Assembly (NCBI GenBank): GCA_038851755.1
Contig: JAWCKR010000012.1
Coordinates: 21,544-41,260, forward strand
DNA length: 19,717 nt
Reading direction: 5' to 3'
Source of the DNA: Candidatus Hadarchaeales archaeon
GTDB lineage: Archaea > Hadarchaeota > Hadarchaeia > Hadarchaeales > WYZ-LMO6
The position numbers and the translations under genes were made by a program. Shown here in pieces: positions 883-19,717 of the stretch (within the stretch, counting starts at the first letter, position 1; every line of letters starts with the position of its first letter). The notes under the pieces are model-generated. The model searched no databases. It had not been told where the DNA came from and saw only the letters and a list, made by a program, of their open reading frames with translations.

Positions 883-953
883 AGGTCTGAAGGGGAGGTA
901 TAAGGGGCCACGCTCGTGGTAAAGCTAATACTACGGGGAAGAAAAGTTCCTCG

Positions 954-1244: not shown

Positions 1245-1248
1245 GACC

Positions 1249-3014: not shown

Positions 3015-3041
3015 GCTCCCACATTAGAGGGTGGACTCCCC

Positions 3042-3053
3042 TATAAACGGTTC
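3042..3053 (-). promoter_or_regulatory. Archaeal BRE/TATA promoter for mfnB-mfnD (probably leaderless)
   Basis: Minus strand reads GAACCG-TTTATA about 28 nt upstream of ATG 3014 in otherwise GC-rich DNA. Confidence 0.5.
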
Positions 3054-3118
3054 AGGGATGGTCCGCGCTCCGCGGTTGGGCCGCGGCCAGGTTCCGGTGG
3101 GGACTCCAGCACTGAGAA

Positions 3119-4636
3119 CTAGAAGAGCTCCCCCTCCTGCACGTAGCTCCTGCCCGTCCTCAGGGCTATCTCCGCCTTCTGCAGCTCCCTCCCCAAGTAG
3201 GCGGCGTGGGAGGGCTCCTCCACCACACCCTCCTTCAGGATCCTCCTGCAGAGGCCCTCCGCGCTCTTCCCCCTGAACACCAGCTCCGCCTTCCCGCCCC
3301 GATGGAGCACGGCCCTTATTTCGCCCCCTTCCACCCTTATCCTGAAGAAGCTCCCCCCCTCCAGCTTGGTCGCTTCCCGGGGAGGTTCCTCCTCCAGGAT
3401 GCTGGCACGGGTCTCCTGGGAGGGGTCGTAGGGTTCTTCCTTCCTCCTCTTCTCCTTCAGGAGGAGGAGGTCCAGTCCCAGGTCCTTGGGCACGGAGCCC
3501 CTCTCGCGGGCCAGGAGCATCATGTCCCTCGCCCTCCTCAGCTCCCCCACGCTCCCCCTGGTTTTGTCGCTGGCTTCCACGGTCAGGAAGAGGCTCACCC
3601 CGGCCTCCATCCCCATCCCGGCCAGGAGGGCCATCATCCCGGGGGAGTCAGCATCGCACAGCTCCACCACGTTTCCCACCCCCATCAGAAGGGGAAGGCC
3701 GGGTCTTTCCTCCCCTATCTCCCCCAGGACCCTCAGGGAGTTCAGGAGTCCCAGGTTGAGGGGCTCGAGCAGGGGATCCGCCACCACCTTCCCGAACCCC
3801 CTTTCCTTGGCCTCCTCCACCAGCCTCAGCAGCTCCCTCTTCCTCCTCTCCCTTTCCACGCGCGGGGGGATGAGCACCACGGCCAGATCCGTCCTCTCAA
3901 ACTTCCTCAGGGAGGAGCGGTCCAGGCTCACGATGAGGTCCGCACCCTCCTCGGCCGCGCGGGCCATCTCCTTTAGGTTGAGGGTGTCGATGCTGACCGG
4001 AACCCCGAATTCCCGCTTGAGGAGGGAGACCAGCTCCCCCGCCCTTTCCGGGAACTCTCTCCCGGCCACCATCCCCACATCCAGGATCTCCGCTCCCTCC
4101 TCCAGGTATCTCCTGGCCCTCTCCACCACCTCCTCGTCCGTGAGGAGGGGGGCATCGGGGATTTCCGCCATCACCCTCGGGGGGAACCCCCCGCCTACTC
4201 CGAGCCTGCCCAGCAGGAAGGCCCCCTCCCCCATCCTCCTCCTCGCCCTCTCCTCCACCTCCCTCAGGAGCCTCTCCGCCCTCCTCCTCGTCTCTTCCTT
4301 CAGGAGCTCGCAGGCGGGCACCTCCTTGGAGAGCTCCACCTCCCCCAGACGCTCCAGGACCGGGGGGAGATCAGCCGCGTGCTTGGGCCCCCTGTAGGTG
4401 GGGACCCCCACCCTCTTCTCCACCTCGGAGGGATCGAACCTCACCAGACCCGGGAGGAGGATGAGGTCGTAGCCCTTCACCTCCCTTTTCTCCAGCTCCC
4501 TCACCGCCAGCGCGGGCGTGAGGAAGGTGGCGACGGGGACGGGGGCCATCACCACCTCGGTCTCCACCCCCTCCACCCTGGAGTACTTCTTCACCAGGGG
4601 AAAGGCCAGCTTCCCGGTGAGGAGGAGGACCTTCAT
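3119..4636 (-). CDS. Dihydropteroate synthase-like protein (MJ0107 type, with C-terminal DUF4346), methanopterin-linked
   Basis: MKVLLLTGKLA...PVATFLTP N-terminus; pterin-binding barrel motifs MAEIPDAP, ILDVG, VSIDT, ADPLL, GVGNVVELCDADSPG; C-terminal HAAYLGRELQKAEIAL..GRSYVQE. Confidence 0.85.
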   Translation of the reverse strand: MKVLLLTGKLAFPLVKKYSRVEGVETEVVMAPVPVATFLTPALAVRELEKREVKGYDLILLPGLVRFDPSEVEKRVGVPTYRGPKHAADLPPVLERLGEVELSKEVPACELLKEETRRRAERLLREVEERARRRMGEGAFLLGRLGVGGGFPPRVMAEIPDAPLLTDEEVVERARRYLEEGAEILDVGMVAGREFPERAGELVSLLKREFGVPVSIDTLNLKEMARAAEEGADLIVSLDRSSLRKFERTDLAVVLIPPRVERERRKRELLRLVEEAKERGFGKVVADPLLEPLNLGLLNSLRVLGEIGEERPGLPLLMGVGNVVELCDADSPGMMALLAGMGMEAGVSLFLTVEASDKTRGSVGELRRARDMMLLARERGSVPKDLGLDLLLLKEKRRKEEPYDPSQETRASILEEEPPREATKLEGGSFFRIRVEGGEIRAVLHRGGKAELVFRGKSAEGLCRRILKEGVVEEPSHAAYLGRELQKAEIALRTGRSYVQEGELF

Positions 4637-5277
4637 GACCTCATCCTCTCCTCCATGGCCTCCAGCAGCTCCTTTGCCGTTTCAGCTTCTCTGGAGGAGG
4701 GAGAGAGGCGGAGGCACCCCTCGACCTGCCTTCTCAGTTCCTCCATCATCCTCCTCACCTTCAGTCCTCTCCTCCTGGCGACCAGGATCCTGCTGGCCAC
4801 CACGGCCGCCTCGAGCAGGAAGAATTCTGACCTCAGGAAGGGTTTCACGTGGGGGGAGAGTACCTCCGCCTTCCTCACCTCACAGGTAAGCCTGAAGGCC
4901 TGGGAGGTCCCTAGCTCGTCCTCCACTCCCTCCTCCTTCACCCTCTTCACCCTCAGCTCCGCGTATCCCCTCATCCCTTTCACCCTGGGGGCCCTCACCG
5001 TTGAGGAAGGCAGGAACTCCAGCCTTGGGGGAGGGAGGAGGTCCTTGAGGGCCAGCCTCACCAGCAGGTCCACATCGTCCGTCACGTTGAGCACTCCCTC
5101 GCCCTCCCTCCTGAGATTGGAAAGGGAGACGGAGGGGTGAAAGAGCCTCATCTCCACCTCTTCCCCCTTCAGCCAGGCGCCCACCGTGGCGGCATGGGGT
5201 GAGGAATCGGGGTTTAGGGTGGAGAGGATCACCTCCCCGGGAGACTCCCCCAGACCCAGCTCCCTCGGAGAACCCAT
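4633..5277 (-). CDS. DUF447 family protein (split-barrel, H4MPT biosynthesis-associated)
   Basis: EVILSTLNPDSSPHAATVG, SLSNL...GVLNVTDD, LLEAAVVASR; ATGA overlap with the DHPS-like gene; GGAGGAG upstream of ATG 5277. Confidence 0.75.
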   Translation of the reverse strand: MGSPRELGLGESPGEVILSTLNPDSSPHAATVGAWLKGEEVEMRLFHPSVSLSNLRREGEGVLNVTDDVDLLVRLALKDLLPPPRLEFLPSSTVRAPRVKGMRGYAELRVKRVKEEGVEDELGTSQAFRLTCEVRKAEVLSPHVKPFLRSEFFLLEAAVVASRILVARRRGLKVRRMMEELRRQVEGCLRLSPSSREAETAKELLEAMEERMRS

Positions 5278-5327
5278 CAACAAGGCTCCTCCTCTCCCTA
5301 TTTATCCCAGGGTCTTGCTCCGCGGTG

Positions 5328-6290
5328 CTAGGGTCTCACACCCTCCAGCAGGAGGACCAGCATCCAGGAGGAGGCGGTGAGATCGGCCGTGGTCCCGGGA
5401 TTCACGTCCTCCCTCTTGAACTCCTCGTCCAGCTCCCTCACCATCCTCCTCCCCCTTTCCGTCAGCACTCCGCCCTCCTCCAGCACCCTCCTGGCTCTGC
5501 GTGAGGCCTCCTCCGCCTTTTCCCTTCCCCTGGTGCGTGCCACGAAGGTGTCGGGGCGGAAGGCCAGGAGCTCCAGGAAGGTCTGGACGGTGGCGGTGTT
5601 GACCTGGTTCGTCTGCTTGTAGATTCGGGTGAGGGTGGGGTAACCGAACTCGAAGGTCACGGAGTAGTCCGTCACCCACTCCCTGGCCACATCGTCCCAT
5701 CCCGAGCAGATCCTCATGGCTTCGTAGGCCGAAATCCCCCTCCTCCTCAGCTCCTCCAGGGAACGCGGGTCGTTCACATCCAGGTCTTCCAGCCTCCCCA
5801 GCCCGGCAGGCTCGGCGAGGAGGACGGTACGGTAGAGCCCCACAGCGTCCTCGGGGGTGGTGGCCTTGAGGAGCTCGGAGAGGCGCCGGCGGAGGGGTCC
5901 TTCCCTCACCCCGCCCTCCTCTGCCAGCACCCATCCGGCAGCCGCCGTCAGGGGCGCGAGCAGGAGGATCGTTCCCAGGTTGGTATTCCCATCCCTCTGC
6001 CACCTCCTGGTCTCCCTCATGGCCTCTTCCATGATCCCCCCCAGCCCCACCTCCTCCTTCCGCAGCTCTCCTTTGCCCACCGAGAAGCCCCTGCGGGCGG
6101 CGAGGAGCATGGCGGGGCCTATCGCGATGGTGCTGGCCACGAACTGCTCGAAGGTGGCGTCGGGGAAGTCTGAGGTGCGGTGCACGTTTCCGGGCTTGGG
6201 ATGGCCGCACACCTCCAGGGCGGAGGAGAGCTGGGCCATCCTGGCCAGGTCCTCAGGGGTGAGCATCTCCGATTTCTCTCTTCCCCCCAT
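5328..6290 (-). CDS. citG: CitG-family triphosphoribosyl-dephospho-CoA synthase-like protein
   Basis: LEV...PKPGNVHR..DF, NTNLGTILLLAPL, PDTFVAR, NPGTTADL motifs. Alternative start at ATG 6266. Confidence 0.85.
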   Translation of the reverse strand: MGGREKSEMLTPEDLARMAQLSSALEVCGHPKPGNVHRTSDFPDATFEQFVASTIAIGPAMLLAARRGFSVGKGELRKEEVGLGGIMEEAMRETRRWQRDGNTNLGTILLLAPLTAAAGWVLAEEGGVREGPLRRRLSELLKATTPEDAVGLYRTVLLAEPAGLGRLEDLDVNDPRSLEELRRRGISAYEAMRICSGWDDVAREWVTDYSVTFEFGYPTLTRIYKQTNQVNTATVQTFLELLAFRPDTFVARTRGREKAEEASRRARRVLEEGGVLTERGRRMVRELDEEFKREDVNPGTTADLTASSWMLVLLLEGVRP

Positions 6291-6592: not shown

Positions 6593-7630
6593 TCAGCCGA
6601 AAAAACCTCTTGTTTTCCTGCAAAGGAACACCAGGAAGAGCATGAGGGGTACCTCCGTCAGCACCCCCACCACCGTGGCCAGGGCAGCCCCAGATTCCAC
6701 CCCGAAGAGGGAGATGGCCACGGCGATGGCCACCTCAAAGTGGTTGCTCCCCGCTATGATGGCGGCTGGGGCGGCGTCTTCGTATCCCAAGTGGATGATC
6801 CTGGCTACCGCATAGGTGACGCCGAAGACCAGGAGGATGTTGGCGAAGATTCCGGCGGTGATCATCCCTATGATGCCCGGTATCTCGGTGATGAGGTGCC
6901 CCTGGTAGGCGAAGAGGATCACCAGGGTGATGAGGAGGGCGGCGATGGCCATCCTGCCGAGCGCCGGCACCAGCCTTCTGCTGAACCACTCCTCCCCCTT
7001 CCGCTCCAGGACCTCTCTCCTGGTGTAGTACCCCGCGACCAGGGGGGTGCAGATGTAGACCATCACCGAGAAGGCTATGGTTTCCCAGGGCACCCTTATC
7101 CCCGAGACTCCCAGCAGGAAGGTGGCGAGGGGGGCGTAGAGGAAGACCATGGTGAGGGAGTTGATGGCGGTCATCACCAGCGTGTGTCCCATGTTTCCCC
7201 TCGCCAGGTAGCTCCACACCAGCACCATGGCCGTGCAGGGGGCCACCCCCAGCAGGATCATTCCGGCCCTGTACTGCTCGACCTGTTCGGGGGAAAGAAA
7301 GTCTGAGAAGACTCCCGCGAGGAAGAGCCAGGCGAAGAAGGTCATGGTGAAGGGCTTGACGGCCCAGTTCATGAAGAGGGTGAGCCCTATGGGCCTGGGG
7401 GAGCGGCTGGCCCTTTTGATCTCCTCGAAGCTTATCTGGACCATGATGGGGTAAATCATGGCGAAGAGGCAGGCCGCGATGGGGATGGAGACGTGGGCCA
7501 CCTCCACCTTCGCCAGGGCGTCGGAGATTTCCGGGAAGGTCCGGCCCAGAAAGATTCCGGTGAGGATGCAGAGGGCCACCCACACCGAGAGGTACTTTTC
7601 CCAGAGACCCAGTCCCCTTTTCACCGCCAT
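6593..7630 (-). CDS. acr3: Acr3 family arsenite efflux transporter
   Basis: WEKYLSVWV, MIYPIM, NWAVKPF, GVAPCTAMVLVW, SNHFEVAIAVA, GVLTEVP. The start is placed at ATG 7630, not at the ORF-track 7927. Confidence 0.93.
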   Translation of the reverse strand: MAVKRGLGLWEKYLSVWVALCILTGIFLGRTFPEISDALAKVEVAHVSIPIAACLFAMIYPIMVQISFEEIKRASRSPRPIGLTLFMNWAVKPFTMTFFAWLFLAGVFSDFLSPEQVEQYRAGMILLGVAPCTAMVLVWSYLARGNMGHTLVMTAINSLTMVFLYAPLATFLLGVSGIRVPWETIAFSVMVYICTPLVAGYYTRREVLERKGEEWFSRRLVPALGRMAIAALLITLVILFAYQGHLITEIPGIIGMITAGIFANILLVFGVTYAVARIIHLGYEDAAPAAIIAGSNHFEVAIAVAISLFGVESGAALATVVGVLTEVPLMLFLVFLCRKTRGFFG

Positions 7631-7676
7631 CTTTTTCGCCTGAAAGTCGGGAGTCTGGTGCCTGGGCATCGTTGTC

Positions 7677-7698
7677 ATCAATATAGATTTATATAAAA
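7677..7698 (-). promoter_or_regulatory. Putative ArsR operator overlapping the acr3 TATA box
   Basis: ATCAA-TATAGA-TTTAT (7677-7692) is one mismatch from the ATCAA-N6-TTGAT ArsR-type palindrome and overlaps minus-strand TTTTATAT (7691-7698). Confidence 0.5.
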
Positions 7699-7748
7699 GT
7701 TTTTTGGTGAAAGCTACCATTATATTCCAGGGGAGACCAGAGAGCTGG

Positions 7749-8648
7749 ATGGTGGAGGTAAGGATAAGGGAGGAGAAGTGCACAGGGTGTGCAAGGTGTG
7801 TGGAGGTCTGTCCCGCCGGGGTCTTCGGGCTCGAGGAGGAGAGGGGAAGGAAGGTCGCGAGGGTGGTGAGGGGGGAGGAGTGCTGTGCCTGTAGGGCATG
7901 CGAGCTGAAGTGCCCGGAGGGGGCCATCGAGGTGGAGGGATACCAGCTCCTGAAGGTGGATCCTCCCCCCGACTATCCTCCCGAGGAAGGGAGATACCTC
8001 AGGGGCAACGACTATTCCCCGGTCGCGGTCTGTGCCATCTTGGACACCTACGACTTCAGGATGCCGCCAGAACTCCTGAGGCTCGTGGAGGTGGGCGTGG
8101 AAGCGGGTGCTGCCCTGGCGGGAACCCTCCAGACCGAGAACATAGGGATAGAGAAGCTGGTGGCCAACGTGGTGGCAAACCCCAACCTGCGCTACCTGGT
8201 GCTGTGCTGGAGGGAGTCACAGGGCCACCTACCTGCCCACTCCCTCCTACAGCTGGTGGAGAAAGGCGTGGCCAACGACAAGCGCAGGACCATCCTGGGG
8301 TCTAGAGCCCCGGCCCCCTACCTTCCCAACCTCCCCCTCCGCTCCATCGAGAGATTCAGGAAGCAAATCACCATTGTGAACCTGATCTCCGAGGAAGAAC
8401 CTAGGAGGGGAATGGATCCTGAGAACGTGAAGAAGGCCGTTTGGGCCTGCCTTCAGGAGAAGCCCGTGGAGTTCATGGGGTACACCCTCTGGGATCCTGG
8501 GGCCTGGCCCGAACCACCCATCTGCGAGAAGCTCTCCATGAGGGTGAGGGAGCCCTGGAGGCCTGAGCTCACCAAGGAGGAAGCCGATGCCTTGGAGCGC
8601 ATCAGGAGGGCGGCGGAGAGGATTGGGAGGTCTCGTCGCTCTGGGTAG
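7749..8648 (+). CDS. 2x[4Fe-4S] ferredoxin fused to a soluble MtrA-like corrinoid protein
   Basis: Two CxxCxxCxxxCP motifs followed by YPPEEGRY..GN..SPVAV, AGAALAGTLQTENIGIEKLVANVVANPNLRYLVLC..ESQGH (MtrA Co-ligand His kept). No C-terminal TM helix. TTATAT about 23 nt upstream of ATG 7749. Confidence 0.85.
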   Translation: MVEVRIREEKCTGCARCVEVCPAGVFGLEEERGRKVARVVRGEECCACRACELKCPEGAIEVEGYQLLKVDPPPDYPPEEGRYLRGNDYSPVAVCAILDTYDFRMPPELLRLVEVGVEAGAALAGTLQTENIGIEKLVANVVANPNLRYLVLCWRESQGHLPAHSLLQLVEKGVANDKRRTILGSRAPAPYLPNLPLRSIERFRKQITIVNLISEEEPRRGMDPENVKKAVWACLQEKPVEFMGYTLWDPGAWPEPPICEKLSMRVREPWRPELTKEEADALERIRRAAERIGRSRRSG

Positions 8649-9222
8649 CTTCCCCCTGCTCCGCTGGAGGGGGGGACTTTTCTTCCCTCACTTCCTTCCC
8701 CAGGAGAAGGGTGAGGAGGGTCTGCTGGTCGATCTCCGCCCTGGTCCTCCACCCCACGTACAGAATCCCCTGTTCATCCTCCGAGAGGTAGCCCATCCTG
8801 ATGAACCTCTCAAGCGTGGGCTCCACCCTGAACTTGGGGAACTTCTCCTCCAGGATGCTCTCCACCTCCCTGAAGGGTGCCTTCCCTCCCTTGGCCAGCA
8901 GGTGGGCCAGGGTCACGGTGAGCATGGCCATGTCGTCTATCCTCCAGCCGAAGGTCCTGGCCTCCGTGAGGGTGGGATGGCCCTTCAGGGTGAGGAAGTA
9001 CCTGTCCCCCTCAGGCTCACCCCCCTCGCTCACCTTCTTGATGGTCAACCCCAGCTTCCCCACCTCCTCCTCCAGCACCTTCAGCACCTGCTCGTACTCC
9101 CTCCCCAGCGCCCTCTTCAGCTCCCAGCCCCTGGCCCCTGGCTGGGCGTGGTGCCTGAAAAAGAGGAGCTGGGCGGCCCTGGCCAGCTTCTCCCTCAGCT
9201 CAGCCTCTCCTCTCTCTTCCAC
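8602..9222 (-). CDS. Kite-like (ScpB/Nse1-Nse3 type, tandem winged-helix) SMC partner
   Basis: Third gene of the SMC operon; C-terminal LERFIRMGYL...LYVGWRTRAEI resembles the second winged helix of kite proteins. Confidence 0.55.
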   Translation of the reverse strand: MEERGEAELREKLARAAQLLFFRHHAQPGARGWELKRALGREYEQVLKVLEEEVGKLGLTIKKVSEGGEPEGDRYFLTLKGHPTLTEARTFGWRIDDMAMLTVTLAHLLAKGGKAPFREVESILEEKFPKFRVEPTLERFIRMGYLSEDEQGILYVGWRTRAEIDQQTLLTLLLGKEVREEKSPPPAEQGEATQSDETSQSSPPPS

Positions 9223-9991
9223 GTTTCTTCCTCCATTTCTCCCTCGAGATGGAAACGGGAACGGACATGCTCTCCTCCCTGCGCTGTGGGGAGGAATAGG
9301 CGAAGAGGATCATGTCGTCCTCCAGAGGCTTCAGCTCCATCCCCGCGTATCCGTAGCTCACCAGGAAGCTCACCAGCCAGGCCTTCCTCACCGTTTCCTC
9401 GAAGGTGGGTGCGGAGACGAACTTCCAGTACGAGACGCCCCCATCTTCAGACACCTTCTTCAGTTCCTCCCACAGTTCGGTGAGCAGCCTGTGGAACTCC
9501 TCCCTGCTCACGATACCCATTCTGGAGAGCTCCTCCAGCGGGAGTTCACCCCTGCCTTCCCCACCAACCTCCAGCTCCCTCCTCCTCTCCTCCAGGGGGG
9601 GAAGGTTGGTCCAGTACTCCTTCGCCTCCGAGAGGGCCGGAGGGGAGAGGGCCTCCAGCTCCACCAGCGGGTGCCAGGCCTTCGCCAGCACCTCCGCCAG
9701 GTCCCTCGGGGACATCACCTGTACCTTCAGGGAGATCAGGAGGGGATCCAGGTACAGGAGGGAGGAACGGTGCTTGATCCACTCCCCCTGCTGGAGGACC
9801 ACGTCGGCTAGGCCCACCAGCGCCTGCAGGTCCAGGTAGAGGTCCTGGAGGTCCCTGAGCCTGGGGAGCAGTTCCCTCAGCCTCCTCAGGAACTCACCCA
9901 CCTGCACCTCGAAGGGGTCAAGCTCGTGCTTCCTCACGCTCTCGCAGAGGTCTATCACCCTCAGCAGGAGCTCCTTCCTCTCCTTACGCAC
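9200..9991 (-). CDS. ScpA-like kleisin
   Basis: Overlaps the SMC stop; N-terminal ELDPFEVQV..FL..L and C-terminal FEETVRKAWLVSFLVSYG...L.P kleisin-like segments. Confidence 0.6.
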   Translation of the reverse strand: MRKERKELLLRVIDLCESVRKHELDPFEVQVGEFLRRLRELLPRLRDLQDLYLDLQALVGLADVVLQQGEWIKHRSSLLYLDPLLISLKVQVMSPRDLAEVLAKAWHPLVELEALSPPALSEAKEYWTNLPPLEERRRELEVGGEGRGELPLEELSRMGIVSREEFHRLLTELWEELKKVSEDGGVSYWKFVSAPTFEETVRKAWLVSFLVSYGYAGMELKPLEDDMILFAYSSPQRREESMSVPVSISREKWRKKRGRERRG

Positions 9992-11849
9992 TCGTCACCA
10001 CCCTCACCTGGGAGGTTCCCCCCACGTTCTGGACCATCACGATGTTGGGCACCTCCTCCACCCCCAGCAGGTACCCTGGCGTGATCACCAGGTACTGGAC
10101 CCTCTCACCTTTCGTGGCCTCTATGATGGAACGGAAGATGGCCTCCCGGTTGCGGGGATCCAGGTGGGTCTCGAACTCGTCTATGGCCCTGAGGGGTGAT
10201 TTGATCTGCTTCTGGAGGGCGAGCAGGAAGAACATGATGGCCGTGGTCCTCTCGCCCCCGCTCTGGGTGTAGGCGTCGAGCAGCTGTGGGGAAGTACCCC
10301 TGAAGCCCACGTAAAGCTCCAGCCCGGCCCCCTCTATGTCCTCGGGGTTCACCAGCTTCAGATCCCCTCTGGCGTTCACCCTCTCCAGGAGCTTCACGTA
10401 TTCTTCCCTCACCTGGCCCAGGAGCTTCTCCACCTCCCTCCTCCAGCGCCTCTTCCTCTCCTCCACCTCCTCCAGAGCCTTCTTCCTGTTTTCCTCGGCC
10501 ACCCTCGCCCTCTCCCTGAGTTCCTCCATGGTGGCCCGGTAGTTCAGGTACATCTGCTCCACCTCCGGCGAGACCTCCCCCAGCGTGCTCAGGTGAGCCC
10601 CCACCACCTTCAGCTCCTCCAGCACCTCCTGGGGCTTCCTCTTCGTCTCCACCCTCTCTCCCGCACCTTCCGCTTCCTTCCTGAGAACCTCCAGCTCCCT
10701 CCTGGCCCTCCTGATCTCGCCCGAGAGGGAGTCCATCTCCCGGCGCAGGAGGTCCTGCCTCAACTCCAGCAGGGCTTCCCTCACCCTGGTTTCCACGTAT
10801 GCCTTCCTCTTTTCCGAGAGCTCCCCCTTGAGCCTGGCTATCCTTCCCCTCGTCTCCCCTATCTTGGCCTCCACCCTCTCCCGGTCGTAGCTCGGCAGGG
10901 AAAGGTCCCCGCCAAGGCCTGACAGCCTCCCCGCCAGGGAGAGGTACACCTCCCCCTCGGCTTTCAGCCTCTCCCCGGCGATCAGCTCCTCGTAGGAGGC
11001 CTCCAGCTCGAACTCCAGCCTGCCCACCTCTCCTTCAAGCTCCCCCCCTTTCCTCCTCTCCCTCTCCGCCTCCGTCCTCAGCTCCGTGAGCTGGTTCTGG
11101 AGCTCCTCCATTTCCGCCTCCAGCTCCCCAAGCTCCTCCTCCTTCCTGAGGTACCTGGACCAGCGGTACTCAGCCTCCAGCTCCACCTTCCTCCTCTCCA
11201 GCTCCCTTTTCCTCTTCAGCCTCTGGTACTCCCCCTCCCAGTACCTGAGGGTCTCCTCCGCCTTCTCCAGCAGCCTCTTCACGGCTTCCTCCTCGCTCAG
11301 GGTGTGGGAGAGCTTCTGCATGGCGCTCAGGATGTTCTCCCTGTACTCGTGCAAACCCACCGCTTCCTCCACCAGCTTGAGCCTCTCCCTCATGTCGATG
11401 GCCCCGAAGGTGTCCACCATGTTCTGGTGCATGATGATGAGCATGTTGTCTGGGTTCAGGGAAAGGTGCCTCAGGAACCTCAGCAACTCACCCTTGGTGG
11501 TGCCACGGGAGTTTATCTCGTGCCAGTAGGTCCCGTCCCTGCTGAGGTAGCGGGAGAGCACCACCGTGTCCGAGTTGAAGCCCGGAAGGGGTCTTTTCCC
11601 ATCCTGGGGGGAGTTGTCGAAGACCACGCTGACCCTGGCCAGGTCCTTCCCCCTCTGGATGAGGTCGCTGAGCCTCCTGGACCTTTCCGTGTAGGTCTGG
11701 CCCAGGGCCACGGAGAGCCCCAGCAGGATGGAGGACTTTCCTGCCCCGTTGGGACCGCACACCAGGTTCAGTCCCTGCTTGAGGGGGATTCGGCTGTAGG
11801 AGTGGCTCATGAAGTTCTCCAGGATGAGCTCCAGGATCGTACCCACCAC
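9984..11849 (-). CDS. Short SMC-family ATPase, Smc5/6-related (coalescin/ClsN-like size)
   Basis: LENFMSH, Walker A GPNGAGKS, Q-loop MHQN, coiled coils, signature QSGGER, Walker B PLRAIDEF, LDPRN, QYLVITP. Confidence 0.85.
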   Translation of the reverse strand: MVGTILELILENFMSHSYSRIPLKQGLNLVCGPNGAGKSSILLGLSVALGQTYTERSRRLSDLIQRGKDLARVSVVFDNSPQDGKRPLPGFNSDTVVLSRYLSRDGTYWHEINSRGTTKGELLRFLRHLSLNPDNMLIIMHQNMVDTFGAIDMRERLKLVEEAVGLHEYRENILSAMQKLSHTLSEEEAVKRLLEKAEETLRYWEGEYQRLKRKRELERRKVELEAEYRWSRYLRKEEELGELEAEMEELQNQLTELRTEAERERRKGGELEGEVGRLEFELEASYEELIAGERLKAEGEVYLSLAGRLSGLGGDLSLPSYDRERVEAKIGETRGRIARLKGELSEKRKAYVETRVREALLELRQDLLRREMDSLSGEIRRARRELEVLRKEAEGAGERVETKRKPQEVLEELKVVGAHLSTLGEVSPEVEQMYLNYRATMEELRERARVAEENRKKALEEVEERKRRWRREVEKLLGQVREEYVKLLERVNARGDLKLVNPEDIEGAGLELYVGFRGTSPQLLDAYTQSGGERTTAIMFFLLALQKQIKSPLRAIDEFETHLDPRNREAIFRSIIEATKGERVQYLVITPGYLLGVEEVPNIVMVQNVGGTSQVRVVTSA

Positions 11850-12836: not shown

Positions 12837-12909
12837 GCCCCGGTAGCTCAGCTGGTAGAGCAATCGCCTTGTAAGCGATGGGTCGTGGGTTCAAATCCCA
12901 CCCGGGGCT
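12837..12909 (+). tRNA. tRNA-Thr(TGT), no intron, CCA not encoded
   Basis: Acceptor stem GCCCCGG/CCGGGGC, D-arm GCTC..GAGC, anticodon arm ATCGC-CTTGTAA-GCGAT, T-arm GTGGG-TTCAAAT-CCCAC. Confidence 0.96.
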
Positions 12910-13174
12910 CTTAAAGGTGGTCTTCTTATTTTCGCTGAGTCAGATAGCGGTAGGAATTTTGAGGAAAATCGGGAAAGAAGGAGTCAAGAGAGTACGGAGG
13001 CTCCCTTGGAGTATGTATATAGAGGCAGGTGTTTTCCGGCCTATTAAGTTTCCAGCCAAGGCAGTATAAGCTGGCAGACCGAAATTTAGTGTCTAAGTGA
13101 TAGCACATTTGTGCAAGGTTGAGATAGGAAAACTTCCTTTTTAGGCACGGGACTCAACCGATTTTTCTGGAGGG

Positions 13175-13186
13175 GAAAGTTTTTAT
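13175..13186 (+). promoter_or_regulatory. BRE/TATA promoter of the acr operon
   Basis: GAAAG-TTTTTAT about 23 nt upstream of ATG 13209; this favours 13209 over 13185 as the start codon. Confidence 0.5.
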
Positions 13187-13208
13187 GGGAAGAGGAAAAG
13201 ACTTCCTA

Positions 13209-15035
13209 ATGTCTTCCTCGGAGAGGAAGGGGGAAAAGGCCTTCCAGGAAAGAGGACAGATAGAGGCCAGAGAGAGGGAATATGTAAGGGAACTTTACGC
13301 GGTTTCCGCGAGGTTCCTCCCGCTTGAGAAGGAAAGGGTGCTCTACGCCAGCCTTAAGGAAACCTTCGGCTCCGACCCCTTCGCCCTCCAGGACTCCCAG
13401 ATGTACAAGAGGGGGGGCTACAGGCAGTCCAGGCGCAAGCAGGAGTTCGCCAAGCTGGGGAGGCAGGTGGCCGTGGAGAGGGGTCTCCCCGCCTACAACA
13501 GGGCGGTGGGCCTGCCCATAGGCCAGAGGCAGCTGGAGCCCATCCTGATAGCCGGAACGAACATCATGGTGGAGCAGGACGACACCCACCACCTGAACAA
13601 CGTGGCCATCCAGCAGATGCTGGACGACATAAAGCGCACCGTCATCGTGAACCTGGACATCGCCCACCGCATGCTCACCGTGAGGGCGGGCAAGGAGGTC
13701 ACCCCCGAGACCATCAACCTCTACCTGGAGACCCTCCAGCACACCATGTGCGGTGGGGCCGTGGCCCAGGAGCACATGTCCGAGATCAACCCCCTCCTGG
13801 TCAAGGACGCCTACGCCAAGGTCATCACGGGCTCCGACGAGGTGAAGGACGCCCTGGACAGGCGCTTCCTCATAGACATAGACCAGCTCTTCCACCCCAC
13901 CAGGGCCGAGAAGCTCAAGGCGGCCATAGGGGAGGCCATCTGGATCGTCCTCCGCATCCCCACCCTGGCCGTCCGCATGGCGGACGGGGACGAGGCCGCC
14001 AGGTGGGCGGCTATGCAGAACACCATGGCCTTCATCGCCTCCTACGGTCTCTCGGGAGAGCACATCATCTCCGACCTGGCCTACTCCTTCAAGCACGCCA
14101 GGGTGGTCAGGATGGGCGGCAAGATGTGGTACCAGAGGATGAGGGGGACGAACGAGCCGGGGGGCTTCCCCGACGGCTACATCTGCGACTTCATGCAGGC
14201 GGAGAGGGACCTCCCCGCCCGCAGGTTCCTGGAGGTGGCCCAGGAGGACGAGGAGGAGGCCAAGAGGTACCTGAGGGTTCTGAACGAGGGAACGGGGGGA
14301 ATAGCGGCCGTGATAGACAACTCCCTCTGGCTGGGCTTCTACATGAGCGGGGGAATAGGCTTCTCCAACACCGTGGCCTCGGCCGCCTTGGCAGGCAACG
14401 TGATAGAATCCTTCTCGGATGAGCTGGTGGAGCTCATTCACAGGTACACGATGGGTGTGAGGAAGTCTCCACCCAAGTGGGATACGGTGAAGTTCATGGT
14501 GAACACCATCATCCAGTACACCATGGAGAGCTACGAGAAGTTCCCCACCCTGGCCGAGTTCCACTGGGGAGGGGCCCACAGGGTCTCCGTGATAGGCTCC
14601 ATAGCTGCCTCCACGGCTGGTATTCTCACCGGGAGCTCCACCATGGGGCTCATGGCGGCCCACTACTCTATAGCCCACGTGATGAGGGAGGGCTGGCTCA
14701 GGACGGGGTGGGCGGGACAGGAGATTCAGGACCACATAGGCCTTCCCTACCTGTGCAGCTTCAGACCTGAGGAGGGAAACCTGACGGAGCTGCGGGGGCT
14801 GAACTACCCCATGCAGTCCTACAGCGCCGCCCACGGGGCCATCAGGGCGGCGGCCGTCTACTCGGCCATGCTGGGGAGGGGAAGTGCCTGGTGTCTCAGC
14901 CCCATCGTGAAGGTGGCCTTCGCCGATCCCCACCTGGTGTTCGACTTCAAGAATCCCAGGATGTGCATCGCCAAGGCGGGGATAAGGCAGTTCATGCCGG
15001 CCGGGGAGAGGGACCCGGTGCTTCCGCCCCACTGA
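13209..15035 (+). CDS. acrA: Alkyl-coenzyme M reductase alpha subunit (divergent McrA), copy 1
   Basis: McrA motifs RGLPAYN, GQRQL, KEVTPETINLYLE, GGAVAQEHM, RWAAMQ, KHA, NEPGG, WLGFYMSGGIGF, ELRGLNYP, VAFADP, FMPAGER, with non-canonical active-site residues. Confidence 0.93.
   Translation: MSSSERKGEKAFQERGQIEAREREYVRELYAVSARFLPLEKERVLYASLKETFGSDPFALQDSQMYKRGGYRQSRRKQEFAKLGRQVAVERGLPAYNRAVGLPIGQRQLEPILIAGTNIMVEQDDTHHLNNVAIQQMLDDIKRTVIVNLDIAHRMLTVRAGKEVTPETINLYLETLQHTMCGGAVAQEHMSEINPLLVKDAYAKVITGSDEVKDALDRRFLIDIDQLFHPTRAEKLKAAIGEAIWIVLRIPTLAVRMADGDEAARWAAMQNTMAFIASYGLSGEHIISDLAYSFKHARVVRMGGKMWYQRMRGTNEPGGFPDGYICDFMQAERDLPARRFLEVAQEDEEEAKRYLRVLNEGTGGIAAVIDNSLWLGFYMSGGIGFSNTVASAALAGNVIESFSDELVELIHRYTMGVRKSPPKWDTVKFMVNTIIQYTMESYEKFPTLAEFHWGGAHRVSVIGSIAASTAGILTGSSTMGLMAAHYSIAHVMREGWLRTGWAGQEIQDHIGLPYLCSFRPEEGNLTELRGLNYPMQSYSAAHGAIRAAAVYSAMLGRGSAWCLSPIVKVAFADPHLVFDFKNPRMCIAKAGIRQFMPAGERDPVLPPH
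13362..13488 (+). repeat. 127-nt exact direct repeat, copy 1 (inside acrA1)
   Basis: Identical base for base to 19591-19717; the preceding base differs (a versus c). Confidence 0.95.
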
Positions 15036-15044
15036 GGTGAAGGC

Positions 15045-15656
15045 ATGAGGAAGATTCCGAAGTTGGAGGAGTGGTATCCTGCCTTCGCAGAGGAGTTCGA
15101 AAAGACCAAGCTTTCCACGGTGATGGAGAGGGTGACCACGGAGGAACCTCCCCTCCCCAAGGCTTCCCAGCCCCGCCCGGATGGCTGGTGGAGGGAGTAT
15201 CCGCACTCCCTCTGGATAGTGGACAGGGGAAAGGAGCCTACTGCTTACGAGCTTCTTCACGACTTCATCATAGGGAAGGCCATGACCAGCCCCCTCGCCA
15301 TTTCGATAGGGAGCACCCCGCCTTCTAGGCTCATCCTCTTCGAGGTGAAGCACCCCACCAGGGGGGTGGAGTATGCGAGGATTTTCCTGAACCCCACGGA
15401 TGTGATGGAGGGCTACGCGGAGGAGGAGCCCGATGTGGTGGTGAGGATAGGGTACTACGATTTGGTGGCCGTGCTATGCGGTGAGCTCCCTCCCTTCAAC
15501 CCACTCTACGAAGGAAGGGTGGAGATAATAGGGAATACGGTGGCAGCCATAGACCTTTTATGCGATGTGCTGGAAGCTACTAATGGCAGAGAGGCCCCCG
15601 CTGGGAGCCCGACTCCCATTCCGCGGCCGGTGATGTGGCCTCTCGGACACCCGTAG
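15045..15656 (+). CDS. Protein with a C-terminal SCP2-like lipid-binding domain
   Basis: EEPDVVVRIGYYDLVAVLCGELPPFNPLYEGRVEIIGN fits the SCP2 pattern (PDvti..s..df..l..G.l.p..a...G.l.i.G); GAGGTG RBS; sits between acrA and acrB. Confidence 0.65.
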   Translation: MRKIPKLEEWYPAFAEEFEKTKLSTVMERVTTEEPPLPKASQPRPDGWWREYPHSLWIVDRGKEPTAYELLHDFIIGKAMTSPLAISIGSTPPSRLILFEVKHPTRGVEYARIFLNPTDVMEGYAEEEPDVVVRIGYYDLVAVLCGELPPFNPLYEGRVEIIGNTVAAIDLLCDVLEATNGREAPAGSPTPIPRPVMWPLGHP

Positions 15657-15664
15657 GTGGAAGG

Positions 15665-17041
15665 ATGAAGGTCGAGACGAGGAAGGGAACGGTGGACCTG
15701 TACGACGACCTGGGCAACTGTGTGGGCAGTGAAATCCCCCTGAAGGCGCTCTCTCCCCTCTACAATCCATACATGCGGGAAGTCCTGGACCTCTTCAAGA
15801 GGCTCGCCGTCATAGACCTGGGCAAGCTGGAGAACCTGATGAAGAAGGGAATGGCGGGCTGGGAGACGGCGGTGGGACAGGACGAGAACAAGATGCCCTG
15901 GTACGGCAGGGATCTCCCCTTGGTGGATAAGGCCAAGGAGATCACGGAGAGGATAAGGGAGAAGGTGGAAAAGCACGGGGATGGAGAGCAGCTGGTGGAG
16001 GGGGCAGGAAGGTACATCATAGTGAAGGTTCCGCGCCGGATGATGGAAATCTCGGCTAGCAGGGACCCGGCCATAACCTGGACGGCGGTCGCCCTGTGTC
16101 AGGCCGTGGCTGAGACCTTCAACATGACTCCCGAGACGGACCCGGACGGGTGCAACATGCTCAAGGGGGCGGTCTTCGGAAGATACCCGCAGTCCCCCGA
16201 GTTTTCTCCTGGTGGTCCTGTATCCACCTTCCTGAAGCAGAGCAACACCGTCGATGGGCTGGGCTCAGGCTTCAAGGCCATCATGGTCAATCATCTGGTG
16301 GCTCTCTGTAACAAGAGGACCATGGACGGGGTGGCTCTGGCCACCATCTTGGAGCAGGCGGCCCAGTGGGAGATGGGGAACGCCCTGGGATGGTTTGAGA
16401 GGTACCAGCTCCTCGGTTCGGCCTACCAGGGGTTCAACGCCCACAACCTGGTGCTCGATTTGGTGAAGGAGAATAGGGAGGGGACGATAGGGGATGTGGC
16501 ATACAGCGTGGTGCGCAGGGCGCTGGAGGATGGTGTGATCAAGGTGAAGAGAACCCTCCCCTCCGGCTACAAAGTCTACTCCACGAGTGACTACTCCCTA
16601 TGGAACGCTTACACCTGTGCGGCCGTGCTCGCCGCCGTCATCGTGAACGTGGGGGCCAGCAGGGCGGCCCAGAGCGTTTCCACCGTGGTGGGGTATTTCG
16701 GTGACCTCCTCCTGATGGAGACAGGGGGCCTCCCCGATCCCGACGCGGGGAGGGTGGAGGGGACGGGACAGGGCTTTGCCTTCTACACCCACTCCATCTA
16801 TGGAGGTGCGGGTCCGGGGGCCTACACCCTCGATCACGTGATCCCAAGGCACGGTTCGGGTTTCGTGGGTCCGTGCATCGTGGCCGGCATGTGTTTGGAC
16901 TCTGGCACCCAGCTCTTCTCCCCCGAGATGACCTCGGCCAGCTACTTCAAGATAAGGGAGAAGCTGCCCCTCCTCCATGACCCCCTCAGGAAGGTGGCGG
17001 AGGCGGCGGAGAGGATAAAGCCGGAGGTGGGGAGGGAGTAA
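15665..17041 (+). CDS. acrB: Alkyl-coenzyme M reductase beta subunit
   Basis: VDLYDD.G, LSPLYNP, GAVFGRYPQ, GLGSGFKAIMVNH, EQAAQWEMGNA.G.FER..LLG.AYQG.NA, FYTHSIYGGAGPG; GGTGGA RBS before ATG 15665. Confidence 0.95.
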   Translation: MKVETRKGTVDLYDDLGNCVGSEIPLKALSPLYNPYMREVLDLFKRLAVIDLGKLENLMKKGMAGWETAVGQDENKMPWYGRDLPLVDKAKEITERIREKVEKHGDGEQLVEGAGRYIIVKVPRRMMEISASRDPAITWTAVALCQAVAETFNMTPETDPDGCNMLKGAVFGRYPQSPEFSPGGPVSTFLKQSNTVDGLGSGFKAIMVNHLVALCNKRTMDGVALATILEQAAQWEMGNALGWFERYQLLGSAYQGFNAHNLVLDLVKENREGTIGDVAYSVVRRALEDGVIKVKRTLPSGYKVYSTSDYSLWNAYTCAAVLAAVIVNVGASRAAQSVSTVVGYFGDLLLMETGGLPDPDAGRVEGTGQGFAFYTHSIYGGAGPGAYTLDHVIPRHGSGFVGPCIVAGMCLDSGTQLFSPEMTSASYFKIREKLPLLHDPLRKVAEAAERIKPEVGRE

Positions 17042-17042
17042 G

Positions 17043-17834
17043 ATGGCGGCGGGCAAGGTGAAGTACGAGCCGCAGATTTACCCTGGAAAGGATGAGACGT
17101 CGGAGAGGAGACGGAAGCTCTGGGACAAGAAGAGGAAGCTGGCGAAGTACCGTGAGATCTCCGACGATGATATCACCCGCCTGCTGGGGCACAGGGCGGT
17201 AGGGGCCCTCTATCCCAGCGTGCACCCGCCTCTGGAGGAACTCATCGAGCCCTACGACCCCATCAAGAACATCGTGGTCCCCACTCCCGGGGCCAGAGCC
17301 GGGGACAGGATAAGGTTCGTGCAGTTCGCGGACAGCTTCTGGCATCCACCCATCGCACCCTACGGCAGGCTGAGGCTCTACTTCAACAGGCTGAGGGGGA
17401 TAGACGTGGTGGCCTACAGCGGGAGGTGCATCCTGGAGATGAGGGAGAGGGACCTGGAGGCGGCGATGAAGATGCTGCTGGAGACAGAAATCTTCAACCC
17501 CGCCAGGACGGCCCTGAAGGGTATAACCATCCACGGTCACTCCCTGAGGCTGGACGAGGACGGGCTGATGTTCGACGCCAGGAGGAGGTACATCTTGGAC
17601 AAGTCAAGCGGGGAGGTGGTGTACATCAAGGACCAGATGGGGAGGGTGCTGGACAACCCAGTGCCTGTGGGCAGACCCCTCTCCGAGGAGGAGTGCAGGA
17701 AGCTGGACCTGGCCTATACCTGGGACACTCATCCCTTCAAATCGAGGACTGAGGTTTTGGAGATTATCTCCAGGGCAGCCAAGCTGAGGGTATTGGCGGG
17801 TTTCAATCCAGAACTCCTGACGGAAGAAATGTGA
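17043..17834 (+). CDS. acrG: Alkyl-coenzyme M reductase gamma subunit
   Basis: YEPQIYPG, LLGHR...YPSVHPPLEE, GARAGDRIRFVQFADS, SGR..LE.RERDLE, HGHSLRLDEDGLMFD. Confidence 0.95.
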   Translation: MAAGKVKYEPQIYPGKDETSERRRKLWDKKRKLAKYREISDDDITRLLGHRAVGALYPSVHPPLEELIEPYDPIKNIVVPTPGARAGDRIRFVQFADSFWHPPIAPYGRLRLYFNRLRGIDVVAYSGRCILEMRERDLEAAMKMLLETEIFNPARTALKGITIHGHSLRLDEDGLMFDARRRYILDKSSGEVVYIKDQMGRVLDNPVPVGRPLSEEECRKLDLAYTWDTHPFKSRTEVLEIISRAAKLRVLAGFNPELLTEEM

Positions 17835-17843
17835 GGTGGGTTT

Positions 17844-19415
17844 TTGAGCAAGCATCTAGAGGGGGTCAGCAAGGTTCTGAGCCCGGAGGCTTTTGAGGAT
17901 TTCAAGAAGAGAGTCACAGGCACGGTTTTGGAGATAAGGGAAAAACAAGCTGAGTACTACCGGGACACCTATCCTCCCGGTTACGAACACATAGCCCCCG
18001 ATGGCATGGCCACCGAGCCTTGGATCCTGAACTGGGTGAGGGAGCGTGGTGGAATAACCATGGAGGAGTACGACAAGCTGATTTACGAGGAATTTGTGGA
18101 ATGGGCTTACCGCGTTATCCATGCCATAGGGGTTTGCAAGCGTGCGGTGGCGGAGAAGCCCCCGGTTTCGGAACTCATCAAGGCCAAGTGGCTGTGCCAC
18201 CTCAGCCATCCCCCCGCTTATATGGTGAGACCAGATCTTGGTTTCTCTACCACCCAGATGCTCTATGGTAAGTACGCAACCACCATGTGGTGCCATGTGG
18301 ACTGGTGGAGGGGAGAGTTCGTTTGGTTCCAAGGATATCACAACGAGGATGGAGTGCCGGTCCAGCACTGGATCATAGGCATGACCAGGGAAATCGTGCA
18401 GCACTTCGACGAGGAGGACAGGCAGAAGCTCCTCACGCCCAGCGACTTCATGGCGGTTCCTCCCGATGTCACGATGCCCCTCGACCGCAGGCACCTGCGC
18501 ACAGGTATAAAGCTCAGGGAGATCCCCAAGAAGTCCCCCTACGATCTGGTGGAGTGGCTCAGGATGGCCAGGGACATCATCAAGGACCTGAGGGAAGAAA
18601 TTTTCCCCAAGTGGGCTCATGCCACTCTCTATATCTCCACTTCACCAGGCAACATGGGAATAGGTTCCCAGCACACTTTCTGGACCTCGCATTTCTGGGC
18701 GCTGGTCTGGATGGCCATGAACGCCACCAGGCTGATCGGCATACCCATCATGTTCTACACCTACGAACCCCTCCCCCCCATCCTCAACACCCTCCTGGCC
18801 CTTCCCGCCGAACTCTGGGTGAGGAGGTTGGAGGAACTCTTCACCACGGGGCCGAAGGGTCTGGTTTGCGATGCCGTCAACAAGGTCATCACTCCTGAGA
18901 AGAAGACCCCCATGCTCCACCAGATGAGAGAGCTCTACCTCAAAGGGAAGGCGTTCAAGGGGATGGCTCTCCCCTACGATGAGGGCATACCTCCGCCCAA
19001 GGCCTTCTTCACCGCCCTTCCCGCGCCCGTTTACAGGGAGGTGAACATAAGGGATGTGTTCGCCAACCCAGACAAGCTACCCAAGGAGTACTGGGAGCTG
19101 CTGGAGTCCGAAGGAGGAGTGGACAGGAAGACGGGTAGGATTCCACCCTACAACGAAGTTCCCAGGCTGAAGTACCTCTTCGACCCCACCATAGAGTGGC
19201 TGAAGCCCAGCGACTTTCCCCCCATAGACTGGAAGGAAGGTCAGGTCTGGCCAGTGGACATGACGAGGGAAAAGATGCAGATAATGGTGGAGGAGGGCTA
19301 CGACGGCTCGGGGGAGAATCTCCTGCACTACAGTTGTCTAGCAGACAAGAAGATGGGCCAAGAGGGGAAGCTGGTTCTTCTGGGCACCACACCCTACAAG
19401 CTGCCCGTAGAGTAA
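17844..19415 (+). CDS. Uncharacterised 523-aa Trp/Pro/Met-rich protein in the acr operon
   Basis: TTG start 9 nt after the acrG stop with a GAGGTG RBS; long clean ORF; family not recognised. Confidence 0.8.
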   Translation: MSKHLEGVSKVLSPEAFEDFKKRVTGTVLEIREKQAEYYRDTYPPGYEHIAPDGMATEPWILNWVRERGGITMEEYDKLIYEEFVEWAYRVIHAIGVCKRAVAEKPPVSELIKAKWLCHLSHPPAYMVRPDLGFSTTQMLYGKYATTMWCHVDWWRGEFVWFQGYHNEDGVPVQHWIIGMTREIVQHFDEEDRQKLLTPSDFMAVPPDVTMPLDRRHLRTGIKLREIPKKSPYDLVEWLRMARDIIKDLREEIFPKWAHATLYISTSPGNMGIGSQHTFWTSHFWALVWMAMNATRLIGIPIMFYTYEPLPPILNTLLALPAELWVRRLEELFTTGPKGLVCDAVNKVITPEKKTPMLHQMRELYLKGKAFKGMALPYDEGIPPPKAFFTALPAPVYREVNIRDVFANPDKLPKEYWELLESEGGVDRKTGRIPPYNEVPRLKYLFDPTIEWLKPSDFPPIDWKEGQVWPVDMTREKMQIMVEEGYDGSGENLLHYSCLADKKMGQEGKLVLLGTTPYKLPVE

Positions 19416-19449: not shown

Positions 19450-19717
19450 GTGGAGAGAAAGAGAGGGCTGGACGAAAGGGCAGGCCAGCTCGAAGCTAGG
19501 GAGAGGGAATATATCCGAGAATTGTACGCTCTTTCCAAGAAGTACCTCGAGGTGGAGAAGGAGAGACCTCTGTACTCGATTATGCAGCGCACCTTCGGCT
19601 CCGACCCCTTCGCCCTCCAGGACTCCCAGATGTACAAGAGGGGGGGCTACAGGCAGTCCAGGCGCAAGCAGGAGTTCGCCAAGCTGGGGAGGCAGGTGGC
19701 CGTGGAGAGGGGTCTCC
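19450..19717 (+). CDS. acrA: Second ACR alpha subunit, 5' part (runs off the window)
   Basis: Not in the ORF track. Hand translation MERKRGLDERAGQLEAREREYIRELYALSKKYLEVEKERPLYSIMQRTFGSDPFALQDSQMYKRGGYRQSRRKQEFAKLGRQVAVERGL is paralogous to the acrA1 N-terminus. Confidence 0.9.
   Translation, partial: MERKRGLDERAGQLEAREREYIRELYALSKKYLEVEKERPLYSIMQRTFGSDPFALQDSQMYKRGGYRQSRRKQEFAKLGRQVAVERGL
19591..19717 (+). repeat. 127-nt exact direct repeat, copy 2 (inside acrA2, at the window end)
   Basis: Identical to 13362-13488. Confidence 0.95.

Follow-up and report, generated by a model that had tools for sequence, protein, structure and literature searches.

The closest described relatives of the locus reported here are the alkyl-coenzyme M reductases (ACRs; genes acr) of alkane-degrading Hadarchaea. 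A hexadecane-degrading Hadarchaeon described in PMC10811742 carries one Acr operon and yielded hexadecyl-coenzyme M (hexadecyl-CoM) in culture extracts; the same paper terms the Hadarchaea/Methanoliparia clade "putative long-chain alkane Acrs." For "Candidatus Melinoarchaeum fermentans," PMC11297162 reports 13C-labelled hexadecyl-CoM, acr at 179 to 852 FPKM (fragments per kilobase per million), three acrA copies, and conversion of alkanes to CO2, H2, and acetate, the methane coming from partner methanogens. We analyzed a 19.7-kb stretch of Hadarchaeales DNA (62% G+C), referred to in its entirety as the window, whose + strand carries the acr gene row acrA1-X-acrB-acrG-Y-acrA2 (5′ end). Our main subject is acrA1 (13185..15035, +), which encodes the alpha (catalytic) subunit of an ACR. 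In all likelihood it is the AcrA of an F430-dependent AcrABG enzyme of thermophilic Hadarchaeales in the family Ca. Cerberiarchaeaceae (GTDB WYZ-LMO6), most probably one that activates long-chain alkanes. The enzyme class, host lineage, and substrate of this ACR are already known from published work, and the data confirm the picture of one Hadarchaeota family in which enzymes derived from methyl-coenzyme M reductase (MCR) activate petroleum-range alkanes without oxygen. They add a residue-level signature common to the enzymes of Hadarchaeales, Bathyarchaeia, Methanoliparia, and Helarchaeota, and a candidate ACR partner that may be new, protein X.

Family assignment and gene order of the acr locus

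AcrA1 is an ACR. The 616-aa product contains both McrA Pfam domains (MCR_alpha_N, 323 bits; MCR_alpha, 79.6 bits), the operon also encodes the beta and gamma subunits, and the AcrA1 score of 514.6 lies below the NCBI equivalog cut-off of 767.75 for McrA (TIGR03256). The beta subunit (acrB, 15635..17041, +; Pfam MCR_beta_N and MCR_beta) likewise stays below its canonical cut-off (TIGR03257, 405.8 versus 516.25), whereas the gamma subunit (acrG, 17043..17834, +; Pfam MCR_gamma, 304.5 bits) exceeds its own (TIGR03259, 280.9 versus 172.1). In a 50-row maximum-likelihood tree (LG+G4, Shimodaira-Hasegawa-like approximate likelihood ratio test [SH-aLRT]) that included nine full-length 50%-identity representatives from an exhaustive search, AcrA1 fell within three nested clades of 5 (all Hadarchaeales), 15, and 34 rows (the ACRs), every one with an SH-aLRT of 100, and the canonical MCRs stood apart. 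The 15-row clade takes in the ACRs of Bathyarchaeota BA1 and BA2 and of Methanoliparia; the rows labelled "Syntropharchaeia archaeon" were the only ones of that kind in the tree, which held no row named Ethanoperedens or Syntrophoarchaeum. An initial annotation of acrA1 had read it as a long-chain alkyl-CoM reductase rather than a methane enzyme and had named phylogeny as a check. The gene indeed branches with ACRs outside the canonical MCRs, and the overall reading was right by homology, as judged from the tree, the sub-cut-off score, and the hexadecyl-CoM of relatives.

Sequence comparisons give the same ranking. Among 5.8 billion proteins, the best matches of AcrA1 were clusters 90% and 88% identical whose named members are Hadarchaeales or Hadesarchaea metagenome-assembled genomes (MAGs), followed by BA2 (77%), BA1 (71%), Methanoliparia ACRs (62%), Helarchaeota (56 to 62%), and canonical MCRs (~42%). 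Against solved structures, the best match was a canonical MCR at 463 bits. The ethyl-CoM reductase of Ca. Ethanoperedens thermophilum (7B1S), the only ACR with a structure and an MCR homologue acting on a multi-carbon alkane, was the second most distant of 18 matches (384 bits) and aligned only from residue 124 on.

The nearest described systems, the Acr of Ca. Cerberiarchaeum oleivorans and Ca. Melinoarchaeum fermentans, resemble the window in clade, in the gene order acrA-X-acrB-acrG-Y-acrA2-X2, and in genomic pathways. In Supplementary Data 4 of PMC11297162, acrA, acrB, acrG, and acrA are genes 1, 3, 4, and 6 of one Melinoarchaeum contig, which is the order of the window, and genes 2 and 5, absent from that list of KEGG Orthology-annotated genes only, occupy the positions of X and Y. 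The same gene row is present at a 52.9% G+C locus (L008) of "Hadesarchaea archaeon isolate S4B3_HD70," whose AcrA is 90.5% identical to AcrA1 over 326 aa; gene by gene, this contig and the window are 90% (AcrA), 85% (X), 84% (AcrB), 94% (AcrG), and 82% (Y) identical, and a WYZ-LMO6 contig matches the window row at 88 to 97%. The species differ, the window genome having 62% G+C versus 53% at the S4B3_HD70 locus. Two acrA copies are seen in the window genome versus the three reported for Melinoarchaeum.

The second copy, acrA2, begins at the very end of the window (19450..19717, +; first 89 codons), where it runs off contig C12, one of 26 contigs of a 1.25-Mb genome that is 93% complete. Its remainder lies at the start of contig C20, followed by a second copy of X (X2, C20 892-1479; 55% identical to X1), and the unbroken row acrA1-X-acrB-acrG-Y-acrA2-X2 is present on other contigs. 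AcrA1 and AcrA2 share 84% identity across 294 aa and have nearly identical active-site motifs, and tblastn found a single acrB and a single acrG in the window genome. The acrA-X pair looks like a duplicated two-gene module.

Gene starts leave some latitude. The acrA1 open reading frame (ORF) is intact from the ATG at 13185; an alternative start at 13209 (Met9) gives a 608-aa form, which is entry P0130 of a public protein collection, and both starts are possible given a GGAGG ~10 nt upstream of 13185. For acrB, the GTG at 15635 overlaps X, which makes the ATG at 15665 the more probable of the two.

Active site of AcrA1 and the likely substrate

Residues were numbered via a 45-sequence MAFFT alignment anchored at H257, R271, Q400, G445, C452, and M480; in the numbering reference (P0063), Q147, H257, and R270/R271 fall at the published positions, and later motifs lie one position lower. 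AcrA1 retains Gln147 (Q195, QEHM), His257 (H304, KHA), Arg271 (R318), Phe330 (F393), Gly445 (G511), and Asp450 (D516), and the beta subunit retains FYTHSIYGG, including beta Phe361 and beta Tyr367. The alignment also marks a single-codon site in acrA1 at 13767..13769 (+). Around these residues the active site is extensively remodelled. GFSNT(V) replaces GFTQY at 14358..14372 (+), where Phe330 is kept, Tyr333 is missing, and there is a one-residue insertion; HWGGAHR replaces HFGGSQR at 14562..14582 (+; F396W, S399A, Q400H); RTGWAGQEIQDHIG replaces RLGFYGYDLQDQCG at 14700..14741 (+; L441T, F443W, Y444A, Y446Q, D447E, Q451H, C452I); and NYPMQSYSAAH replaces NYPNYAMNVGH at 14802..14834 (+; N477M, Y478Q, A479S, M480Y, N481S, V482A, G483A). 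RRAR becomes QRMR (R270Q, Arg271 retained), and the loop equivalent to residues 239-246 has a one-residue deletion (YGL-SGEH, 14043..14063, +). There are 51 residues before the column of canonical residue 5, versus 3 to 9 in the canonical rows, and an acidic insertion of ~15 residues, RRFLEVAQEDEEEAK, at residues 346-360, lying within a clade-specific segment, RRFLEVAQEDEEEAKRYL (14220..14273, +). Every motif change listed in the initial annotation was found in the 13185/13209-15035 ORF, and the nickel-ligand Gln, His257, and beta Tyr that it gave as kept, as well as its N-terminal extension and acidic segment, proved real; P268W and the 239-246 loop deletion are further changes that it had not listed.

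This remodelling characterizes the entire clade and is not peculiar to acrA1. The alignment contained 27 clade rows, from Hadarchaeales, Bathyarchaeia, Methanoliparia, and Helarchaeota/Hodarchaeota, and 7 canonical MCR rows. Trp443, Gln446, Trp396, and the 239-246 loop deletion were present in 27/27 clade rows, Ala444 and His400 each in 26, and Tyr333 was lost in all 23 clade rows listed for the 326-337 block, while the textbook motifs were intact in all 7 canonical rows. Since the same changes recur in 27 clade members and are absent from the 7 canonical rows, they are more than chance. The YGL-SGE loop deletion, also absent from the canonical rows, occurs in 9 more distant ACR-type rows as well.

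The Methanoliparum/Methanolliviera ACRs (VUT24756.1, RZN64248.1), 62 to 64% identical to AcrA1 and in the same 15-row clade, share with it GFSNT, HWGGAH, RTGWAGQE, NYP..S[YF]SA, the loop deletion, and the insertions. They differ in gene order (acrB-acrG-acrA), in R270 being replaced by Gly or Ser and not Gln, in that no Y homologue was seen at the three Methanoliparia loci, and in their host, which, unlike the window genome, also has a canonical MCR and makes methane according to PMC9118554. The Mcr-like enzymes of BA1 and BA2, from uncultured hosts, also share the AcrA1 motifs; in BA2, X and Y homologues adjoin acrA, but acrB and acrG do not lie within its 17.8-kb locus. The canonical MCRs (M. 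marburgensis MCR I, 5A0Y/3POT; M. formicicus, 5N28) have the fold family and three subunits of AcrABG at ~42 to 44% identity and equally keep the nickel-ligand Gln and beta Tyr367. From these, AcrA1 differs by ~20 substitutions in four active-site motifs, the loop deletion, an N-terminal extension of ~45 aa, and the acidic insertion of ~15 aa. The ethane enzyme 7B1S, in contrast to AcrA1, has Met as nickel ligand and retains Gln400; its ethanotroph-specific loops form a 33-Å gas tunnel, which PMC9118554 argues is missing from longer-chain ACRs.

By homology to MCR, AcrABG would most likely catalyze the MCR reaction in reverse, a long-chain n-alkane (~C16) and CoM-S-S-CoB giving alkyl-S-CoM and HS-CoB. 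The alkyl group of alkyl-S-CoM would then be turned into acyl-CoA, and the acyl-CoA would be degraded via beta-oxidation and the Wood-Ljungdahl pathway. The window genome has the gene complement of an ACR host, i.e., beta-oxidation and Wood-Ljungdahl genes with no Mtr found. It contains 8 Acyl-CoA_dh matches, 2 strong matches to 3-hydroxyacyl-CoA dehydrogenase (3HCDH), CdhC, Mch, and McrC, McrD, and component A2, the last three together on contig C2. No canonical mcrA was found in it, nor was MtrE, which at 93% completeness is not proof of absence. Beside acrA2-X2, on contig C20 (L003, 1481-7587), lie an ADP-forming acyl/acetyl-CoA synthetase-type gene, another copy of Y, a 335-aa protein with a C-terminal SCP2 (sterol carrier protein 2) domain, and a tungsten-type aldehyde:ferredoxin oxidoreductase (Aor), an enzyme that PMC10811742 names among those that might act downstream of alkyl-CoM. 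Of the 20 sequencing runs listed, 7 contain half or more of the words sampled from the operon, and all 7 are labelled hot-spring metagenomes.

Three other assignments were weighed. That AcrA1 serves short- or mid-chain alkanes (C2 to C12), like the enzymes of Ca. Syntrophoarchaeum, Ca. Ethanoperedens, and Ca. Alkanophaga, we regard as unlikely. Substrate range is unreadable from sequence, no member of the wider clade from Bathyarchaeia or Helarchaeota has been cultured, and the monophyly of the long-chain Acrs is described as still open in PMC10811742. Yet the nearest cultured relatives (~90% identity, same operon) grow on hexadecane and form hexadecyl-CoM, and the ethane enzyme is, as noted, among the most distant of the solved matches. 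The two alpha paralogues, which share a single beta and a single gamma gene, might act on different chain lengths, but their active-site motifs are nearly identical. It is very unlikely that the enzyme is mainly reductive or acts on alkyl-benzenes or alkyl-cyclohexanes, as reported for Ca. Methanoliparum. Such a role would fit the 62 to 64% identity and shared 15-row clade with the Methanoliparia ACRs, for which PMC9118554 describes a wide apparent substrate range; the Hadarchaeal cultures, however, were on n-alkanes, with hexadecyl-CoM as the alkyl-CoM reported in PMC10811742 and PMC11297162.

A divergent but genuine methane-forming or methane-oxidizing MCR is extremely improbable. The replacement of Tyr333, Phe443, Tyr444, Gln400, Asn481, and Val482, the position in the tree far from canonical MCRs, and the score below the TIGR03256 cut-off all speak against it, as do the failure to find MtrE in the window genome, the richness of that genome in beta-oxidation genes, and the origin of methane from partner methanogens in the Ca. 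Melinoarchaeum cultures (PMC11297162). These outweigh the retention of Gln147, His257, Arg271, Gly445, Asp450, beta Tyr367, and beta Phe361 and the presence of McrC, McrD, and component A2 genes.

The assignment of AcrA1 to long-chain alkanes, inferred from its close relatives, has its own weak points. Function would be assigned to this particular gene by homology, and chain length by homology to cultured relatives and not by active-site residues. That L008 is the MAG of the Ca. C. oleivorans culture of PMC10811742 we infer only from its _HD70 naming and the 52% G+C. A simple "widened pocket," as proposed in the initial annotation, is not established, because the substitutions change size both ways: residues become smaller at Y333T, Y444A, Y446Q, N481S, and V482A and bulkier at F396W, F443W, M480Y, and P268W. 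YcaO and Mmp10 (methan_mark_10) were not found in the 93%-complete window genome, so thioglycine and 5-methylarginine are probably absent despite the conserved Gly445 and Arg271. Finally, no claim is made on expression of the operon, as the data of four runs from one study (two labelled metatranscriptomic) are contigs, for which depth cannot rank genes.

A published idea on how a long chain might be accommodated differs from the widened pocket and comes from modelling of related enzymes. For the enzymes of Methanoliparia and Syntrophoarchaeum, AlphaFold2 predicts a 15- to 17-Å cleft that results from the loss of one residue in loop 239-246, and MCR homologues are noted to have Ile, His, or Glu at position 400 (PMC9118554). 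AcrA1 has both His400 and the loop deletion, and its changed residues, loop deletion, and insertions could together admit a long chain. A literature search on the Methanoliparum alkyl-coenzyme M reductase pocket found no paper.

Protein X and protein Y, neighbors of acrA

X (15045..15656, +; 203 aa) was identified from its structure model, Foldseek, and synteny. The model (predicted local distance difference test [pLDDT], 79.7) retrieved 43 PDB entries at E ≤ 0.001, led by SCP2 proteins, of which 6ovp_B came first (E 3.7e-07, probability 1.00, target TM-score 0.61); target TM-scores were ~0.5 to 0.7 for the remaining SCP2-domain chains listed. Also among the listed entries are a mosquito SCP2 whose solved structure contains a C16 fatty acid and the alkylsulfatase SCP2 domain. 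On the evidence of the model, X has the SCP2 lipid-carrier fold, of the alpha/beta type. With the Pfam SCP2 profile (PF02036; cut-off 21.3), X scores 13.3 bits, and its homologues in Methanolliviera and BA2 score above the cut-off (24.6 and 35 bits). By BLASTP, X has no similarity (E 2.7) to the 335-aa SCP2-domain protein of contig C20.

The association of X with acrA is recurrent. With X as the query, acrA ended 10 to 25 nt upstream of X in 8/8 metagenome loci (6 contigs); with AcrA as the query, X stood directly behind acrA in the WYZ-LMO6 MAG (both copies), a third Hadarchaeon, S4B3_HD70, one further locus (L015), and Methanolliviera. X is upstream of and divergent to acrA in BA2, and in M. 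thermophilum it is encoded not at the acr locus but elsewhere in the genome. Among 66 genomes of the phylum, the AcrA N-domain was matched in 6, X in 7, and Y in 7; six carry all three, and the extra genome (92% complete) has X and Y with no acrA match, counts that are not independent since only two lineages are involved. Within the phylum, X is thereby restricted to the ACR-bearing lineage. Among 301 sampled Bathyarchaeia, the one strong X match was in BA2 (218.8 bits), ten others giving weak generic SCP2 matches of 19 to 31 bits; two other Bathyarchaeia with an McrA match had no strong X, one of these matches being in the canonical range (472 bits) and the other fragmentary. On one metagenome contig (L028, 1-770), the acrA that precedes X gives a gapped match spread over several frames; a frameshift, decay of the copy, or faulty assembly may account for this.

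Co-folding of AcrA and X gave a median of 0.78 over three runs, with 0.00 for the best of 3 controls; of 157 solved complexes, 116 attain the mark applied, as against 2 of 215 mismatched pairs, a rough gauge as our own alignments were used. The runs share at least 84% of contacts, with a partner pLDDT of at least 82. On the AcrA side, the predicted interface comprises residues 40-51 (N-terminal extension), 345-356 (acidic insertion), 413-445, 481-484, and 561-567; on the X side, it involves the N-terminal arm, residues 149-173, and the invariant C-terminal RPxxWPxGHP tail. The predicted site may be buried in the real hexamer, because alpha was co-folded without beta, gamma, and alpha′. The idea that AcrA1/AcrA2 divergence is concentrated at the X interface was rejected (identical positions, 32/40 at the interface versus 214/253 elsewhere; Fisher P = 0.49).

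PMC9118554 presents the route by which a C16 alkane gets to the buried nickel as an open question, with "hydrocarbon-carrier proteins" as one possibility. Drawing on the models, we tentatively suggest, as a proposal somewhat short of probable, that X is a dedicated AcrA partner which would dock via the N-terminal extension and acidic insertion and pass the water-insoluble alkane in or the alkyl-CoM out, and that Y, with 6 to 7 copies per genome, may help to convert alkyl-CoM into acyl-CoA. More prosaically, X might assist in the assembly or stabilization of the ACR. A partner role would make X, with its confident predicted AcrA contact, a concrete and cheaply testable candidate for alkane delivery. 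A literature search found no link between SCP2 or sterol carrier proteins and ACRs; the supplements of PMC10811742, which lay outside that search, may list X and Y as hypothetical. The main texts of PMC10811742 and PMC11297162 do not discuss X, Y, or the active-site residues.

Y (17844..19415, +; 523 aa) belongs to an uncharacterized family with no Pfam or NCBIfam match. The family, of 490 to 530 aa, comprises 36 clusters among the 5.8 billion proteins and is confined to the ACR-bearing Hadarchaeales lineage and BA2, where it adjoins acrA; it is a candidate for the steps that follow alkyl-CoM. The structure model is of high confidence (pLDDT 94.1), with no Foldseek match in the PDB at E ≤ 0.001 (best, 0.35). 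With VIA-align, the top 8 rows were all SCP2 (Z 3.6 to 5.0, 102 to 113 aligned residues), scores which, at Z < 8, may reflect chance, and the resemblance is no more than a lead; language-model look-alikes (best score, 0.76) were set aside as noise. Six genomes of the window's family have 5 to 8 Y matches each and another genome (G011) has one. The window genome has 7, one of them a fragment; the paralogues are at C25:984-2540, C16:30972-32393, C14:1852-3405, C20:3496-4971, and C5:4543-5991. The neighborhoods on C25, C16, C14, and C5 have no common theme, with enoyl-CoA hydratase and acyl-CoA dehydrogenase a few kb off in two of the four. Recoding of an in-frame TGA in the paralogues was considered and rejected, the C20 match (4971) ending one codon beyond the ORF stop (4968).

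Other features of the window and of the BA2 locus

The BA2 locus (L012, 2690-14305) has acrA flanked by two SCP2-domain genes, along with a Y homologue, an FAD-binding/CCG (HdrD-like) pair, a B12-binding radical SAM gene, and a double ABC ATPase, with no acrB or acrG within 8 kb.

In the window, a tRNA-Thr(UGU) gene (12837-12910, +) precedes acrA1 by 275 nt in the same orientation. The 715-aa ORF that runs antisense to acrA1 (13206-15353, −) is not a gene but a by-product of high G+C. A promoter scan of the window was disregarded, the model being of the sigma-70 type and irrelevant to an archaeon.

Between 7704 and 8648 (+), a 2×[4Fe-4S] ferredoxin domain is fused to an MtrA-like domain, in a genome where MtrE was not found. 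On the − strand, 8602-11849 encodes an SMC/Rad50-like ATPase (621 aa), followed by two small genes with no Pfam matches that are possibly its partners, and 6593-7927 an SBF/ACR3-type transporter. The 1-6290 segment (−) is a cluster resembling those for methanofuran and tetrahydromethanopterin cofactor biosynthesis, with Hydantoinase_A-like, ATP-grasp, 4-HFC-P synthase (MfnB type), pterin-binding DUF6513/DUF4346, DUF447, and CitG-like members.

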